Sequence record: MT446422.1
Reading direction: 5' to 3' (one strand)
DNA: 64,000 nt
DNA from: Escherichia virus TH57
Position 1 is the stretch's first letter. Each line of letters begins with the position of its first letter. The position numbers and the translations under genes were made by a program. Shown piece by piece: positions 3,168 to 64,000 of this stretch. Below the pieces are notes generated by a model. It was not told where the DNA came from. It saw only the letters and a list, made by a program, of their open reading frames with translations, and did not search any database.

Positions 3168-3728
3168 ATGATTATTGAAACGACTGAATTGTTTGGCGAA
3201 CTGACCGCTGAAGTAGTTAATAACGCAATTGAGCTTTGTCAAGAAGACGATAAAATCGTACTGACTATCGCTGATATTAAACCGCTTTATGATTTAATGG
3301 TTTTGGATAGACACGATTATCTTAATGGTCGTGCTAGTGCTCCTATTGATATCAATGATGATATGTATGCCTATATCTATAAAAATGAAGCTGGGTTTAA
3401 TCTGGAAAATGGTATTGAATGTCTGAGCATCAGCGATTCTGATAAATTCTTTGATTGTATTTTCAAACTCTTTCAGGAAGAATGTAAACCAGAAGTTGAA
3501 TGGAAAGTCCCAGGACAAGACGCACTGATTCGTTCTAGCGAAACGTTTGAAGGCGATGAAGAGGAATTAGATTATAACACTGAACTGACTGTGCATCAAC
3601 ATAACGGCCGTGACTTGTTGTCCATTGTCCAAAGACATGACGGCGAAAGTGAAGTAGTATTTACTAAGGACGAGCTAAAAGTTTTAGTCTCTTATCTGAA
3701 CTCTGTTATCCCAACTATGAACGCTTAA
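3168..3728 (+). CDS. hypothetical acidic protein
   Basis: 186-aa ORF with GAGGAAA SD, D/E-rich. Confidence 0.55.
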   Translation: MIIETTELFGELTAEVVNNAIELCQEDDKIVLTIADIKPLYDLMVLDRHDYLNGRASAPIDINDDMYAYIYKNEAGFNLENGIECLSISDSDKFFDCIFKLFQEECKPEVEWKVPGQDALIRSSETFEGDEEELDYNTELTVHQHNGRDLLSIVQRHDGESEVVFTKDELKVLVSYLNSVIPTMNA

Positions 3729-3738
3729 GGAAAATATT

Positions 3739-4191
3739 ATGATTATCAATACAAACTCATGGCACGCTCGTTTCCACGACCGTTTTTATGACCGCCATTC
3801 TCGACCACACTCTTTGTGTGCTTACTTTTGGAAAATTGTATGGGCCTGCTTTATTTGTTCTGTGCTTGCAGGTAGTACAATCTTCGCCTTATCTGCTGCA
3901 GGTGCTGGTATATTGGAGCAGTTCTTTGTATTAAGTATTCCTGTTGGTTTAGGGTTAGGGTTTATTTTAGGACTAGCTACAGTAGCTCTTATTCTGGCTG
4001 TAGCATTTGGTTTAATGTACGGTCTAATGAATTTATGGTCCTGGTACGATTTACATAAAGAAGAAAAAGAATGGAAACGTATTCAAGCTGAGCGTGAAGG
4101 CCGAGAAACTAAAGAAAACGTTTTCATTCAATATATCAAAGCTCGTAAATCTAAGATGTGTCCGGTAATCCATTTTGAGGCGAAGAAATGA
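3739..4191 (+). CDS. hypothetical membrane protein
   Basis: 150 aa, two long hydrophobic segments, basic C-terminus. Confidence 0.55.
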   Translation: MIINTNSWHARFHDRFYDRHSRPHSLCAYFWKIVWACFICSVLAGSTIFALSAAGAGILEQFFVLSIPVGLGLGFILGLATVALILAVAFGLMYGLMNLWSWYDLHKEEKEWKRIQAEREGRETKENVFIQYIKARKSKMCPVIHFEAKK

Positions 4192-5198
4192 GAACAGTTA
4201 TGAAAGGCTACTTCGGTAGCCATCTTTATGGAACAAGTACTCCTGAATCTGATGTCGATTTTAAGGAAATCTTTGTTCCACACCCACGTGATATTCTGTT
4301 AGGTACGGCTATGAACCATACCAACTTGAACACGAATAATACGGCATCCAAAAACACTAAAGACGATGTTGACCACGAGCTTTATAGTCTGAAATATTTC
4401 TTTAAACTGGCGGCTGAAGGCGAAACTGTTGCTCTGGACATGATTCACACTCCGGCTAACCTGGTAGTCAAATCCGATTTACCAGATGTATGGAAATTTA
4501 TCCAAGACAACCGTTCACGGTTCTATACAACTAACATGAAAGCCTATTTGGGGTATGTCCGTAAGCAAGCTTCAAAATATGGTGTTAAAGGTTCTAGACT
4601 GGCTGCTCTGCGTGGTGTACTGGCAATTGTTAACCAGATTCCTGAACAGTGGGTCGATTATCAAGAAGATGGTTCTGTTAAACAGCGTCGAACTAAGGTA
4701 GAAGATATTAAGCACCGACTCCCTGAAAACGAGTTCTGTGAATGGGTATTTCATAACCATGAGAAAACAGGTCCTCAAACGTTCTATACTGTCCTCGGTC
4801 GTAAATACCAAACCACTTTGTCGTTAATCGAGCTTAAGCAATCTCTGAATAAGCTTGATTCTGAATATGGTGAACGTGCTCGCAAGGCCGAAGCCAATGA
4901 AGGTATTGACTGGAAAGCTCTGAGCCACGCTTATCGTGCTGGATATCAGTTGAAGGAAATTTATATGACCGGTGACCTTCAATATCCTTTACGAACAGCC
5001 CCATTTATCCTTGAAATCAAACAAGGCCTACACGCTTTTAAAGATGTACAAGCTGAACTTGAAGCAATCGTCGATGAAGTCGAAACCAATGCCATCTGGG
5101 CGGCCAAGAACGGCATGCCAGACAAGGTAGACATGAAGTTCTGGGACAAGTTTGTTGAAGAGGTATATCTTGACAACCACAATTCCTATTATTGTTAA
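4188..5198 (+). CDS. putative nucleotidyltransferase-fold protein
   Basis: 336 aa; N-terminal GSHLYG...SDVDF resembles the minimal NTase motif; ATGA overlap with upstream ORF. Confidence 0.45.
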   Translation: MRTVMKGYFGSHLYGTSTPESDVDFKEIFVPHPRDILLGTAMNHTNLNTNNTASKNTKDDVDHELYSLKYFFKLAAEGETVALDMIHTPANLVVKSDLPDVWKFIQDNRSRFYTTNMKAYLGYVRKQASKYGVKGSRLAALRGVLAIVNQIPEQWVDYQEDGSVKQRRTKVEDIKHRLPENEFCEWVFHNHEKTGPQTFYTVLGRKYQTTLSLIELKQSLNKLDSEYGERARKAEANEGIDWKALSHAYRAGYQLKEIYMTGDLQYPLRTAPFILEIKQGLHAFKDVQAELEAIVDEVETNAIWAAKNGMPDKVDMKFWDKFVEEVYLDNHNSYYC

Positions 5199-5203
5199 AT
5201 TCT

Positions 5204-5229
5204 AAGGACCCTTCGGGGTCCTTTTTTTA
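5204..5229 (+). terminator. rho-independent terminator
   Basis: GGACCC-TTCG-GGGTCC hairpin followed by TTTTTTT. Confidence 0.75.
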
Positions 5230-5242
5230 TTTTAAAAAGTAG

Positions 5243-5311
5243 TGTACGACCAGATGGTTATGAGGCATAATGATTCCATACTGAGTTACCAAATAAAAAC
5301 TGGAGAATAAA
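5243..5311 (+). promoter_or_regulatory. early promoter cassette, CCATACTGAGTTACC leader type
   Basis: AAAAAGTAGTGTAC -35 region, 17-bp spacer, CATAAT, conserved leader GATTCCATACTGAGTTACCAAA..CTGGAGAATAAA ATG. Confidence 0.6.
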
Positions 5312-5518
5312 ATGTTAGAATTAATCAAAGCTGCTGGTGAAAAAGGTCTGATGGTTAACACTCGTGACCCTGAACAACGTCAAGCATTTGGTGAGTTAAA
5401 AGCCAAAGGTCTGGTTAAAGCATCCCTTGGTATTGGCAATGCTTTGCGTGTGACTTTGACCCCTGCAGGTAAAGCAATGTTCTTCCCTAAACCATTACCA
5501 AAACGTCGTCGCAAGTGA
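5312..5518 (+). CDS. hypothetical small basic protein
   Basis: 68 aa, C-terminal KRRRK, directly after promoter cassette. Confidence 0.5.
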   Translation: MLELIKAAGEKGLMVNTRDPEQRQAFGELKAKGLVKASLGIGNALRVTLTPAGKAMFFPKPLPKRRRK

Positions 5519-42393: not shown

Positions 42394-42693
42394 GTGATGT
42401 ACTACGCATATGTGCTGGTCCACAAAGATAAAGATGGTTTTGAACACCCATTGGAGTATGATGGAAAGGTGACCTTATACACCACAAAAGCTGGCGCAGA
42501 TTATGAACTTGCCAACTATTCATATACTACAAACCGCTATTTACGCATGGGACGTATTGAAACACGGTATATTCCCAGGAAGTGGTGGTTTGATAAGCGT
42601 GAAACAAAAACTGTTTTTCCTACTGAAGAACGCGCACGAGAATTGAAATTAGTTTTAGATACTTTATATGTTAAGCGAGTAAAATTGGCATGA
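42394..42693 (+). CDS. hypothetical protein (dda.1 position)
   Basis: 99-aa ORF. Confidence 0.5.
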   Translation: MMYYAYVLVHKDKDGFEHPLEYDGKVTLYTTKAGADYELANYSYTTNRYLRMGRIETRYIPRKWWFDKRETKTVFPTEERARELKLVLDTLYVKRVKLA

Positions 42694-44018
42694 TTAAATT
42701 TGAAGACTTGAACACAGGACAAAAAGAAGCTTTTGATTATATCACTGAAGCTATTCAGCGACGTTCAGGGGAATGTATCACTCTGAATGGCCCAGCTGGC
42801 ACAGGTAAGACCACTCTGACAAAATTTGTCATTGACCACTTAGTGCGTAATGGAGTTATGGGAATTGTGCTCGCTGCACCAACTCACCAGGCGAAAAAAG
42901 TTTTATCTAAATTGTCTGGTCAAACAGCGAATACAATCCATAGTATCCTGAAGATTAACCCGACCACATATGAAGACCAAAACGTTTTTGAACAGCGCGA
43001 AATGCCTGACATGTCAAAATGTAATGTTCTGGTTTGTGATGAAGCAAGTATGTATGACGGGTCTCTGTTTAAGATTATTCTTAACTCTGTTCCCGAATGG
43101 TGTACTATTCTTGGGATTGGTGATATGCACCAGCTGCAGCCAGTTGACCCAGGAAGCACACAACAAAAGATAAGCCCATTCTTTACGCATCCTAAGTTCA
43201 AACAGATTCATCTGACTGAGGTCATGCGAAGTAATGCTCCTATCATTGAAGTGGCGACAGAAATTCGCAATGGTGGTTGGTTCCGTGACTGCATGTATGA
43301 AGGCCATGGCGTGCAAGGTTTCACCTCACAAACCGCTTTAAAGGATTTCATGATAAACTATTTCAGTATTGTAAAAGATGCTGATATGTTGATGGAAAAC
43401 AGGATGTATGCATACACGAATAAATCAGTTGAAAAACTGAACAATATTATTCGTCGCAAGCTATATGAAACGGACAAAGCATTTTTACCGTATGAAGTCC
43501 TGGTTATGCAAGAGCCACACATGAAAGAGCTGGAATTTGAAGGTAAGAAATTCAGCGAAATTATTTTTAACAATGGTCAGTTAGTTCGCATCAAGGATTG
43601 CAAATACACTTCCACCATTCTCCGCTGTAAAGGCGAATCGCACCAGTTAGTGATTAATTACTGGGACCTGGAAGTTGAGTCAATTGATGAAGATGAAGAA
43701 TATCAGGTTGACCGCATTAAAGTTTTACCAGAAGACCAGCAACCAAAATTCCAGGCATATCTGGCGAAAGTTGCTGACACATACAAACAGATGAAAGCCG
43801 CTGGTAAACGTCCAGAGTGGAAAGACTTCTGGAAAGCGCGCAGGACCTTCTTGAAAGTTCGTGCTCTTCCGGTCAGTACAATCCATAAGGCACAGGGCGT
43901 TTCAGTGGACAAAGCATTCATCTATACTCCATGCATCCATATGGCCGAAGCTTCATTAGCGAGCCAGTTGGCTTATGTAGGAATCACACGAGCGAGGTAC
44001 GACGCATATTATGTATAA
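42690..44018 (+). CDS. dda: DNA helicase Dda (SF1B)
   Basis: 442 aa; Walker A GPAGTGKTT; extensive identity to recalled T4 Dda. Confidence 0.93.
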   Translation: MIKFEDLNTGQKEAFDYITEAIQRRSGECITLNGPAGTGKTTLTKFVIDHLVRNGVMGIVLAAPTHQAKKVLSKLSGQTANTIHSILKINPTTYEDQNVFEQREMPDMSKCNVLVCDEASMYDGSLFKIILNSVPEWCTILGIGDMHQLQPVDPGSTQQKISPFFTHPKFKQIHLTEVMRSNAPIIEVATEIRNGGWFRDCMYEGHGVQGFTSQTALKDFMINYFSIVKDADMLMENRMYAYTNKSVEKLNNIIRRKLYETDKAFLPYEVLVMQEPHMKELEFEGKKFSEIIFNNGQLVRIKDCKYTSTILRCKGESHQLVINYWDLEVESIDEDEEYQVDRIKVLPEDQQPKFQAYLAKVADTYKQMKAAGKRPEWKDFWKARRTFLKVRALPVSTIHKAQGVSVDKAFIYTPCIHMAEASLASQLAYVGITRARYDAYYV

Positions 44019-44256
44019 GGTACATAAAGAAGATTTAGATAATCTTATCTATGGTATTCAGGACGCGGTTGAATTTTTCGAAGATAATCCAACTATCGTC
44101 GTGCAGGGTAATTACGTTTTGCTGGAACTGAATCTTATTCGGAAACGTATGGCCGCGATTGAATATTTTAACAATGAAGAGCCAGGGATTTTTATCTCCG
44201 ACTATGTTGCTGGTGAAATTCAGAAATTAAAAGAGATGTGCGATGGTTGCTGGTGA
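44011..44256 (+). CDS. hypothetical protein
   Basis: 81-aa ORF whose last 17 codons run into the 40-bp tandem duplication. Confidence 0.45.
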   Translation: MYKVHKEDLDNLIYGIQDAVEFFEDNPTIVVQGNYVLLELNLIRKRMAAIEYFNNEEPGIFISDYVAGEIQKLKEMCDGCW

Positions 44257-44285
44257 AATTCAAAAATTAAAAGAGATGTGCGATG
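44206..44285 (+). repeat. 40-bp direct tandem duplication (2 copies, 1 mismatch)
   Basis: GTTGCTGGTGAAATTCAGAAATTAAAAGAGATGTGCGATG at 44206-44245 and again at 44246-44285 with G to A at unit position 18. Confidence 0.9.
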
Positions 44286-44966
44286 ATTGATGCTATTATT
44301 GACTTTGAAACTCTAGGAAACGGCTCGAAGGGAGCCGTTATTGACCTGGCTCTGATTACATTCGAATCTGACCCTGCTATTGTGGAATCATTCGAAACTC
44401 TGGTTAATCGCGGCAAACGTATTAAGTTCAGCCTCGAATACCAAAAAGGTAAGCGGTTGTTCGACACAACAACCATGGGTTGGTGGAAAAAACAATCACC
44501 AGAAGCTCGTGTTAACCTGACTCCTTCTGCGCATGATGTTGATACTCTGACCGGTATCCAACAGGCGATTGACTATCTGAATGGCAATGGAATTAACAAA
44601 TACGAAAGCCTTATGTGGTGCCGTGGAATGTCTTTTGACTTCCCGTTGTTTGTCGACCTTATCCGCGACCTACAGCGCAATGAGGGGATTCCTGAGCGTG
44701 AATTGAATACCTACGGTCTGGAGCCGGTTGTATTCTGGAATCAGCGAGATATCAGGACAGCCATCGAAGCCTTATCACTCGTCCGTAAGATGTGTGAAAC
44801 CCCATTACCGAAAGGGACTTTAGATGGATTTGTGGCGCACGATTCGGTACATGACTGCGCGAAAGATATTTTGATGTTGAAGTACGCCCAACGCTATGCT
44901 CTTGGTTTGGATGAAGTTCCTTCCGAAGAAGATGCAGACCCGTTATCTTTACCGAAAAAACGATAA
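44283..44966 (+). CDS. dexA: exonuclease A DexA
   Basis: 227 aa; DFET exonuclease motif; strong match to recalled T4 DexA. Confidence 0.9.
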   Translation: MIDAIIDFETLGNGSKGAVIDLALITFESDPAIVESFETLVNRGKRIKFSLEYQKGKRLFDTTTMGWWKKQSPEARVNLTPSAHDVDTLTGIQQAIDYLNGNGINKYESLMWCRGMSFDFPLFVDLIRDLQRNEGIPERELNTYGLEPVVFWNQRDIRTAIEALSLVRKMCETPLPKGTLDGFVAHDSVHDCAKDILMLKYAQRYALGLDEVPSEEDADPLSLPKKR

Positions 44967-45033: not shown

Positions 45034-45291
45034 ATGATTACTTCTTTTGAAATTGGCCAACAATATGAAATGTCTGCTCTTCAAGCTGCTGAAGCAGGTC
45101 TGACTAAAGCGTTTGAATGTGCATTTGCAAATATTCGTGGTAAAATCTTTACTGTCAATAAAATTGCGGTATATGATAAAGAAACAGACATGAACAAAGG
45201 CATCTACCTGAACGTGTCAAATGCAAAAGGCCGTCGTGAAATTATGGTTGTACAACCTAATCAACTGGCGATGTTCAATAAGGTTGCATAA
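45034..45291 (+). CDS. hypothetical protein
   Basis: 85-aa ORF after promoter cassette. Confidence 0.5.
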   Translation: MITSFEIGQQYEMSALQAAEAGLTKAFECAFANIRGKIFTVNKIAVYDKETDMNKGIYLNVSNAKGRREIMVVQPNQLAMFNKVA

Positions 45292-46046
45292 TGAAACCAG
45301 AATTTATTGACTTTGATGTTGTAAGCACTTATGTGTGTCCAATTAAACCATTAAAACTTGAGAAACAAAATATGACTATTGAAATTAACAAAACTTATCA
45401 ACTGATTGAACCTATTATTCAAAACGCAGCTATGATTTCTGGGTATAATACTTTGACTGATGCTTTAGGTGAAGGTGAATTTGTTGTTGAAACTTTTGTA
45501 AAAAGTAACTGGTTTGATAAAGCATATATTTTGCATGCCCGTCGTCTGGATACTAATGAAGTGGAAAAAATTATGGTTTATGAAGCTGAGATTGAACTTT
45601 TCAAAGAAGTTGAAGAAACTCCTATCAAAGTTGGTAAAACATATCAGCTTATTGAAGATGGTAGTCAGTTTGATAATGCTATCGCACTGCATGCAGGCTG
45701 GCGTGTGCTGAAAGGTATTTTTGGCTTTGCTCCATTTACCGTTGAAACAGTTAAGTACCACAATCACTTAAATATCTTTGAATTTACTGCAATTAATGAA
45801 TCAGGTGACAATCTTGAAGCTATCCTTTATCCGCGTGAATCTGTACTGTTGGAAGAAGTTAACGAACTGGGTGACCCTATTGACTTGTTATGTAAACCAG
45901 TTCAAATCAAACGCCCATTTAACAGTTCCATTTGTGGTTGGGTAACAGACCAGTGGATTGAAGATGGGGTTGAACTCCTGAACGTCGTCCATGCTGGTGA
46001 ATTTACTGTTGTCCCACGTTCCATGGTTGTTCAAATTTTTAATTAA
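45291..46046 (+). CDS. MotB-like paralog with internal duplication
   Basis: 251 aa; two KTYQLIE-containing segments; C-terminal region similar to the next ORF. Confidence 0.5.
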   Translation: MKPEFIDFDVVSTYVCPIKPLKLEKQNMTIEINKTYQLIEPIIQNAAMISGYNTLTDALGEGEFVVETFVKSNWFDKAYILHARRLDTNEVEKIMVYEAEIELFKEVEETPIKVGKTYQLIEDGSQFDNAIALHAGWRVLKGIFGFAPFTVETVKYHNHLNIFEFTAINESGDNLEAILYPRESVLLEEVNELGDPIDLLCKPVQIKRPFNSSICGWVTDQWIEDGVELLNVVHAGEFTVVPRSMVVQIFN

Positions 46047-63042: not shown

Positions 63043-63588
63043 TTATTTTTTAAACAATCCTTTGAAGAATGATTTTTTCTCTTTCTCTGGCCAAGCCGGG
63101 AATTCACCACCAAGGTGTTCGTGTTTTTCTAAAAGAGCAAAGAAACGTTTAAGATTCTGGTGATAGAATTTTTCTTTCTTATCGGCGACTGAGGCTTCAA
63201 CCATATTACTTAATACCTGGAATTCTTTATACAAATCGTCAATTTTTCGATTACGAATTAAAACGCGTTTATAGGTTTCGTCTTCTTTCCAGCCATCGTC
63301 GGTCCACACATCAAATTCACCAGGCTCGTCAAAAGATATACCGACTGGGCTTCCTATGTCATTTATTAAGATTTCTTCTTTATTAAAAGTCCATGCACGT
63401 TTGCCTCGATGGTCTTCTTCATAAATCCAATCTTGAACGCGTTCATCAAATACAACGGCGAAACCTTCTTTAGGTTCCAATGGTTCCTTTGTGGTTGAGT
63501 GAGCCGGGAGACCAAGACCTTTAATGGGTTTATAATTTTCTTCTTTGTAAAATTCTTTTGTGTCAAAATAAAAATGATAAATTTTCAT
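63043..63588 (-). CDS. 38: tail fibre assembly protein gp38 (T4-type)
   Basis: 181 aa from MKIYHFYFDTKEFYKEENYKP, near-identical to recalled T4 gp38 (track ORF starts at upstream TTG). Confidence 0.9.
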   Translation of the reverse strand: MKIYHFYFDTKEFYKEENYKPIKGLGLPAHSTTKEPLEPKEGFAVVFDERVQDWIYEEDHRGKRAWTFNKEEILINDIGSPVGISFDEPGEFDVWTDDGWKEDETYKRVLIRNRKIDDLYKEFQVLSNMVEASVADKKEKFYHQNLKRFFALLEKHEHLGGEFPAWPEKEKKSFFKGLFKK

Positions 63589-63592
63589 ATTC

Positions 63593-63615
63593 AAAAGGGG
63601 CCGAAGCCCCCTCTC
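63593..63615 (-). terminator. terminator-like hairpin between 37 and 38
   Basis: minus-strand GGGGGC-TTCG-GCCCC followed by TTTT. Confidence 0.5.
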
Positions 63616-63616
63616 C

Positions 63617-64000
63617 TTATGCTAAACGAACGATATAGTTAAAAGCAATGTTTTTAACCGTGTTTTCTGTATTACCTGTACTATTTACAGTGATAGTATG
63701 ACCGTGCGAACCAATTGCTACCGAGTGGGTATGAGCACCAATACCTACAGTATGTGTATGGGCACCAATACCTACAGTATGCGCGTGGTTACCTGTGGTA
63801 CTTGTGGTTCCTGACCAAGAGTGGGTATGAGCACCATCATTTGATGTTTTACCAATAGAGCTACTAATACCGATAACACTGGTTGAATTAAATCCAGTCA
63901 TACCAGACGAGGCAGATACTGAATTAACACCGTCTGGAAATAACCCGTTTGGATTATTTCCACTCGAATATCTAGGACCTGAACGAGCGTGCTGGTGAGC
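63617..64000 (-). CDS. 37: long tail fibre distal subunit gp37, C-terminal part (partial)
   Basis: frame stays open to the window edge; ends NIAFNYIVRLA like T4 gp37; His-box repeats GAHTH. Confidence 0.85.
   Translation of the reverse strand, partial: AHQHARSGPRYSSGNNPNGLFPDGVNSVSASSGMTGFNSTSVIGISSSIGKTSNDGAHTHSWSGTTSTTGNHAHTVGIGAHTHTVGIGAHTHSVAIGSHGHTITVNSTGNTENTVKNIAFNYIVRLA
63735..63788 (-). repeat. 27-bp tandem repeat (2 units) encoding the gp37 His-box motif
   Basis: GCACCAATACCTACAGTATG core repeated; encodes two copies of TVGIGAHTH. Confidence 0.8.

Follow-up and report, generated by a model that had tools for sequence, protein, structure and literature searches.

What is the 40-bp direct repeat that spans the start of dexA in Escherichia virus TH57 (sequence record MT446422.1): an error of assembly, a recent accident in one genome, or an established allele, and what does it do to the two genes that meet there? 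The stretch of DNA analysed here, referred to as the window, is 64,000 nucleotides long. A sequence-only reading of it had described a 40-bp unit present twice in direct tandem with a single mismatch, and both the coordinates and the lone mismatch are exact. According to direct reading and a script, the copies are 40 nt each and lie head to tail with a spacer of 0 (Table 1). They are identical at 39 of 40 positions (97.5 %), and the sole mismatch, at unit position 18 (G at 44223, A at 44263), is CAG versus CAA in the frame of the upstream ORF, encoding Gln either way. Tandem Repeats Finder gives a period of 40, 2.1 copies and a score of 154, by far the top score of the 64-kb window. A search of the window for the unit with up to 3 mismatches found only these two copies (expected 0.00, from 100 shuffles), and a second repeat search agrees. 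The repeat register stops at the left edge, while rightward three of four further bases match (ATTG versus GTTG). The duplicated span begins at codon 66 of a small gene and ends with the last base, G, of the dexA start codon. A consensus scan of 43700-44700 found no promoter-like or terminator-like site inside the repeat, and no inverted repeats or hairpin signals were found at or around the junction.

Table 1. Features at the dda-dexA boundary of the window
Feature	Position	Strand	Details
dda helicase	42690..44018	+	Carries Dda SH3 and AAA_30 domains (Pfam); listed as context, with a stop that overlaps the DexA.2-like start
Block identical to TH54	43635..44302	+	668 bp including the repeat; dense SNPs on both sides
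DexA.2-like small ORF	44011..44256	+	81 aa, ending ...EMCDGCW and stop; phrog_5263 / PF26837 (Phage_T4_Y00H_G); function unknown
Copy 1 of the 40-bp unit	44206..44245	+	Sequence GTTGCTGGTGAAATTCAGAAATTAAAAGAGATGTGCGATG; encodes the conserved C-terminal ...VAGEIQKLKEMCD of the DexA.2-like ORF; also bears a duplicate of the dexA Shine-Dalgarno and ATG
Duplicate Shine-Dalgarno-like AAAGAG	44230..44235	+	7 nt before the copy-1 ATG (44243); predicted about half unpaired
Novel junction	44240..44253 (between 44245 and 44246)	+	GCGATG/GTTGCTGG; identical in 14/14 distinct two-copy sequences examined
Mini-ORF	44243..44290	+	MVAGEIQKLKEMCDD and stop, 15 codons, made by the duplication; starts at the copy-1 ATG; putative translation
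Copy 2 of the 40-bp unit	44246..44285	+	A replaces G at unit position 18 (44263); the upstream ORF now stops here (TGA, 44254-44256); also contains the functional dexA ribosome site and the ATG (44283-44285)
dexA Shine-Dalgarno-like AAAGAG	44270..44275	+	7 nt before the ATG (44283)
dexA, 3'-5' exonuclease A	44283..44966	+	227 aa, intact; phrog_255 (E 6e-75); PF16473 (E 9.4e-16), above cut-off

The first consequence concerns the upstream gene. Since 40 is not a multiple of 3, this ORF enters copy 2 out of frame: copy 1 is read in frame as VAGEIQKLKEMCD, and copy 2 is then read as G-C-W-stop. The reading frames thus agree with the earlier proposal that the duplication gave the upstream protein a frameshifted tail and an altered C-terminus, with the stop in copy 2. 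When either copy is deleted in silico the result is a 79-aa protein, ...EMCDD, whose TGA overlaps the dexA ATG in ATGATTGA. The duplication therefore changes the protein by D79G and two extra residues (79 to 81 aa), and in the two-copy allele its stop is shifted to 26 nt upstream of dexA. With the new tail comes a C-x-x-C motif (CDGC), whose two cysteines are the only ones of the protein. A single-sequence AlphaFold model, which is poor (pLDDT 56), gives a weak hint that the last helix may end at the junction, leaving GCW unstructured.

We assign the 81-aa ORF to the DexA.2-like genes because of its similarity to phrog_5263, PF26837 and the T4 and CC31 proteins. The match to phrog_5263 has an E-value of 2.9e-32, and with a profile of 77 positions it ends at residue 78 of the window protein. 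The match to PF26837 is a precomputed one on the record, while the Pfam scan run here gave none. In pairwise blastp comparisons the ORF is 31 % identical to T4 DexA.2 (E 4e-9), 28 % to T4 DexA.1 (E 8e-4) and 32.5 % to the equivalent ORF of CC31 (E 1e-13). It sits between dda and dexA in the window and its relatives, as placement in this family requires, and the records of VR7, VR20 and ECML-359 likewise annotate it as DexA.2-like. The C-terminal ends of family members are unlike one another (MCDD, KEMT, ARKI, IIND). In several relatives the small ORF is annotated as 12 codons longer (91 or 93 aa, MLESHERGTTHI-MYKV...). In the window (43975-44011) the second codon of this extension is TAG (ATG TAG GAA...), so that the longer start is closed and the usable start is the ATG at 44011. 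The T4 RefSeq record (NC_000866.4, 1144-1389) calls the dexA.2 product 'dextranase', apparently a misannotation prompted by the name of the gene.

The second consequence concerns the start of dexA. As the sequence-only reading had noticed, copy 2 supplies the dexA ATG, which is formed by the last three bases of that copy, and the initiation region is duplicated, AAAGAG and ATG being found in both copies. The dexA start is homologous to the annotated starts in relatives, CC31 and T4; the N-terminus MIDAIIDFE aligns with those of relatives, and T4 dexA begins MFDFII. The ATG of copy 1 opens a mini-ORF whose stop (44290) is the ancestral TGA overlapping the real dexA ATG in ATGATTGA. In predicted mRNA folds of 200-240 nt, compared between one-copy and two-copy alleles, the dexA Shine-Dalgarno sequence is 0.51-0.59 unpaired and the AUG 0.04-0.10, with little difference between alleles. 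The AUG is predicted to lie within a weak hairpin in both. The small gene and dexA are intact ORFs in the one-copy and in the two-copy state.

Which of the two states is the older can be judged from more distant phages. Outside the genus, DNA similarity is limited to dexA, and a protein search reaches homologues in Karamvirus. In CC31, a Karamvirus, dda is followed by the small ORF and then by dexA, whose ATG overlaps the small-ORF stop (...KEMT and stop, ATGACATGATT). T4 has TAATG at the dexA.1/dexA boundary and ATGATTGA at the dexA.2/dexA.1 boundary. In the divergent group of VR7, VR25, VR26, TH15 and TH40, all five genomes are single-copy. Because CC31, T4, the VR7 group and the end of the phrog_5263 profile all point the same way, the single-copy state, with the small-gene stop overlapping the dexA start in ATGATTGA, is shown to be ancestral and the duplication derived.

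A megablast search with positions 44011-44450 gave 33 phage records, corresponding to 27 distinct genomes, all of which were retrieved; the matches that bear a taxonomy are all Gaprivervirus (T4-type phages, VR7/SP18 group). Two copies are found in nine of the 27 genomes, with 439-440 bp in one aligned piece (TH54, MN01, TH22, TH55, UPEC07, ECML-359, TH41, VR20 and UPEC01). The comparison with related phages that the sequence-only reading had suggested does find single-copy versions: 18 of the 27 genomes have a span of 399-400 bp with otherwise colinear flanks and the exact sequence that results from deleting either copy in the window. The two-copy genomes come from the USA, Bangladesh, Uganda and Lithuania and have the same junction, GCGATG/GTTGCTGG. 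In VR20 and UPEC01 megablast reports a second place, which is probably an off-diagonal match of the repeat and not another locus. Adjacent copies of high identity, relatives with a single unit and an ancestral single copy together mark this as a short tandem duplication allele.

The allele is also found beyond isolated phages. The 81-aa product occurs exactly in at least 24 contigs, ENA metagenomes and Logan read-run assemblies included, and the 79-aa form in 19 contigs of the cluster listing; such exact-protein look-ups recover only alleles with an intact ...CDGCW tail and are uninformative on constraint of the tail. The Logan contig SRR11772948_46 is identical to the window across 3,246 bp. 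Scans of IMG/VR yielded no further two-copy alleles, with three contigs whose repeat regions match VR20, VR26 and VR25, and a DNA scan of metagenomes yielded one contig, which has a single unit between otherwise colinear flanks. Among the sequences compared only two states were seen, and no allele with three copies. The GenBank record of VR20 is the first to carry the allele, annotated merely as an 81-aa hypothetical protein; we found no description of it in the literature searched.

Several other loci drew our attention. A 27-bp repeat at 63710-63781 (2.7 copies, Tandem Repeats Finder score 88) lies in a minus-strand ORF (63617-63901) and encodes G-x-H-x-H repeats. This ORF adjoins a 183-aa ORF at 63043..63594, and the pair looks like a histidine-rich tail-fibre tip and its assembly protein. 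Downstream of dexA, a MotB.1-like ORF of 251 aa (45291-46046, plus strand) has three direct repeats within it, at 45392, 45638 and 45944; these are diverged, show a KTYQLIE.. / DQWIEDG motif and have spacings of 246 and 306 nt, which suggests an internally triplicated domain. In relatives, the ORF that lies downstream of dexA is followed directly by motB.1, motB and cef. In Escherichia phage DCP80 (PQ671644.1, recorded as a 'complete genome' of 140,978 bp) that place is taken by terminase and tail-sheath genes (3484-5400), an order that suggests a large deletion or a misassembly.

The distribution of the two-copy allele among genomes does not follow that of their flanks. Within 2.5 kb on each side of the repeat no biallelic site is linked to copy number above an r2 of 0.47, and two-copy genomes are non-monophyletic both in the left 800 bp and in the right 800 bp. 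The block that the window shares with TH54 (Table 1) is, judged by its SNP pattern, a clear local recombination mosaic around the allele. The closest relative of the window's right flank is the single-copy PSD2001. The single-copy EAWsc9 is identical to the two-copy TH22, TH55 and UPEC07 over 400 bp on each side, the left flank of the single-copy YenP8 is identical to the same three over 400 bp, and the right flank of M719 is identical as well. Among the single-copy genomes, A at unit position 18, elsewhere a variant of copy 2, is found in M719 alone. The simplest reading would be that the allele moved between backgrounds by homologous recombination, with an occasional collapse from two copies to one, in which the remaining unit would keep the variant of copy 1 or of copy 2 according to the point of exchange. 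Some single-copy records with flanks equal to those of two-copy phages could be collapsed assemblies instead of revertants. A collapse by a de Bruijn assembler with k of 21 or more would be expected to leave G at unit position 18 and not the A of M719.

Taken together, we consider it likely that the window carries a derived structural allele, formed by a single 40-bp tandem duplication across the boundary of the DexA.2-like gene and dexA, that has one origin, segregates in Gaprivervirus and is near-neutral. One duplication would have occurred in an SP18/VR20-like Gaprivervirus ancestor, possibly through an illegitimate template switch or recombination essentially without microhomology. As a result the small gene reads ...EMCD, GCW, stop, ending ahead of dexA, and dexA and its ribosome site are left untouched. 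The spare ribosome site and ATG of copy 1 open the mini-ORF of 15 codons, ending at the old overlapping stop; ribosomes on it would still terminate on the dexA start, much as in the ancestral coupled arrangement. From there the allele may have spread onto different backgrounds through the homologous recombination of T4-type phages, and may occasionally have been lost when one 40-bp copy recombined with, or slipped against, the other.

The number of origins can be approached through the variants within the unit. We coded each two-copy sequence by its bases at unit positions 5, 9, 18 and 36, giving copy 1 before and copy 2 after a slash. The 14 distinct sequences form five haplotypes: CTGC/CTAC in nine sequences, the window included, with the same G/A difference between copies in all nine; CTGC/CTGT in VR20 and UPEC01; and CTGT/TTAC, CCGC/TTGC and CTGT/CTGT (haplotype E) in one sequence each. 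Variants at unit positions 9, 18 and 36 are found in single-copy alleles too. A T at unit position 5 is found in copy 2 only; read in the frame of the new tail it leaves the amino acid unaltered, and in the mini-ORF it replaces Ala by Val. As for the breakpoints, the single-copy allele has 0 nt of exact microhomology there, and only a TTG matches, one base in. In its period-40 register the left mismatches are T/G and A/T and the first base on the right is G/A, and the direct-repeat ATG triplets are spaced 39 nt apart, not 40.

These data could be read as a recurrent hotspot, in which the same 40-bp duplication arose several times, for example on a TGC and on a TGT background, owing to a site-specific tendency to slip or break. 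Two-copy alleles on unrelated flanks whose nearest neighbours are single-copy would fit such recurrence, as would the TTG one base from each breakpoint and haplotype E, whose two copies are identical to each other, as after a fresh duplication, and to the DK13-type allele with one copy. Nevertheless, we regard recurrence as unlikely. Because the breakpoints lack exact microhomology, separate events would not obviously be steered to the same base. Newly duplicating the commonest single-copy allele should give CTGC/CTGC, a combination that is absent among the 14 two-copy sequences, and the copy-2-private T at unit position 5 is common to two otherwise different haplotypes. Moreover, region-wide homologous recombination accounts for the pattern with a single event. 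The best explanation of the haplotypes would therefore seem to be one old event, whose copies later exchanged variants with single-copy genomes, in a region that recombines too much for proof.

The two-copy allele is probably near-neutral, because the C-terminal residues of the small protein are unconserved, the dexA site is unchanged and the mini-ORF would keep termination on the dexA start; a frequency of about one third across continents could, however, also reflect selection. The allele might be a selected expression variant, with DexA output altered by two ribosome entry sites or by coupling through the mini-ORF, or with some property of the CDGC tail favoured, and with copy number as a reversible switch. 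This would be compatible with an intermediate frequency (9/27) on several continents, with the interleaving of one-copy and two-copy states on identical backgrounds, and with the finding that the one mutation private to copy 2 is synonymous when read in the frame of the new tail. The predicted weak hairpin at the dexA AUG also means that coupling might matter. We nonetheless judge selection improbable. Both genes are intact in both states and no three-copy allele was seen; the dexA site hardly differs between alleles in predicted openness; and the small protein is of unknown function with an unconserved C-terminus. One synonymous change is no test of selection, and it was found by a look-up restricted to identical proteins.

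In a stronger form of the same idea, toggling between one and two copies by repeat recombination would tune the translation of DexA, and balancing selection would keep both alleles. We think this a long shot. Were it true, the direct coupling of dexA to the small gene would give way to coupling through the 15-codon mini-ORF, which would have a ribosome entry site of its own, and a role for the C-x-x-C tail would be possible; this minority reading would then offer a simple natural system for the study of translational coupling.

The sequence-only reading had also supposed that the duplication was recent, or possibly an artefact of assembly, and neither suggestion holds. That the event is private to this isolate or its immediate ancestor is very unlikely: the copies are 97.5 % identical, as a young repeat would be, but nine GenBank phages and metagenome contigs have the allele between flanks separated from those of the window by tens of SNPs per 1.6 kb, in five haplotypes that include a copy-2-private variant, and the G/A difference between copies is repeated in nine sequences. 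Short tandem repeats are error-prone for assemblers, but an assembler that circled a repeat loop twice over what is truly one copy is scarcely credible and is excluded for practical purposes because the junction k-mers (GCGATGGTTGCTGG) cannot come from a single-copy template; in addition, the junction occurs in 14 distinct sequences from varied countries and pipelines (GenBank isolates, ENA metagenomes, Logan), SNPs distinguish the copies, in five haplotype combinations, and the whole 80-bp array is probably shorter than a typical sequencing read. A remnant of a whole-gene duplication followed by deletion was also considered and set aside, as it needs two events where one suffices. The duplication is thus not an error, and the 81-aa annotation is legitimate. 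Its junction is also a handy natural marker for tracking recombination in Gaprivervirus.

Duplication and frameshift mutants of the T4 rII and lysozyme genes are classical. Those are laboratory loss-of-function mutants, whereas the window allele is natural, widespread and located at a gene boundary. The allele resembles short tandem duplications that arise by slippage or illegitimate recombination in its head-to-tail copies without a spacer, its single-copy relatives, its shift of frame and its collapsible pair of copies. Microhomology-mediated tandem duplications (MTDs) are spontaneous short tandem duplications defined by microhomology, according to a preprint on them (bioRxiv 10.64898/2026.02.28.708716). 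The window differs from MTDs as characterised there, and from classical slippage, in that its breakpoints are without exact microhomology, the only match being the TTG one base away.

Another parallel lies at the same locus in T4. There, DexA.1 and DexA.2 are tandem paralogues, 35 % identical (E 9e-8), which indicates that the dda-dexA locus has duplicated in tandem before. The T4 pair belongs to the same protein family as the small gene of the window, and in its upstream member the stop lies within ATGATTGA and overlaps the start of the following gene. The two cases differ in scale and age, as T4 has a diverged duplicate of a whole gene of about 240 bp, while the duplication in the window is confined to the final 40 bp of the gene, in near-identical copies. 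By analogy, we conjecture that a common mechanism might underlie the T4 gene duplication and the 40-bp duplication.

Two other known systems were compared with the locus and rejected. T4 gene 60 bypass is similar in that it occurs in a T4-type phage and skips a gap of tens of nucleotides, and the window has identical GAT codons at 44242 and 44282, which might in theory act as sites of take-off and landing. Here, the GAT (44242-44244) is followed by GGT TGC TGG before TGA, with no immediate stop, no specific hairpin was found, and matched codons arise trivially from any tandem duplication. Nor does the array behave as a phase-variable (contingency) repeat, as no gene is switched off, both ORFs being intact with one copy and with two, and only two states were seen.

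A further comparison is with translational coupling by overlapping stop and start codons (ATGA, TAATG, ATGATTGA). The single-copy allele, CC31 and T4 all have a stop that overlaps or abuts the dexA start. In the two-copy allele the full-length small gene differs from these in stopping 26 nt before dexA, so that putative coupling would be possible only through the 15-codon mini-ORF, which ends at the same overlapping stop. On a small scale, the locus illustrates that overlapping genes can tolerate a duplication which shifts the frame, since the stop/start overlap is rebuilt by the added copy through a mini-ORF.
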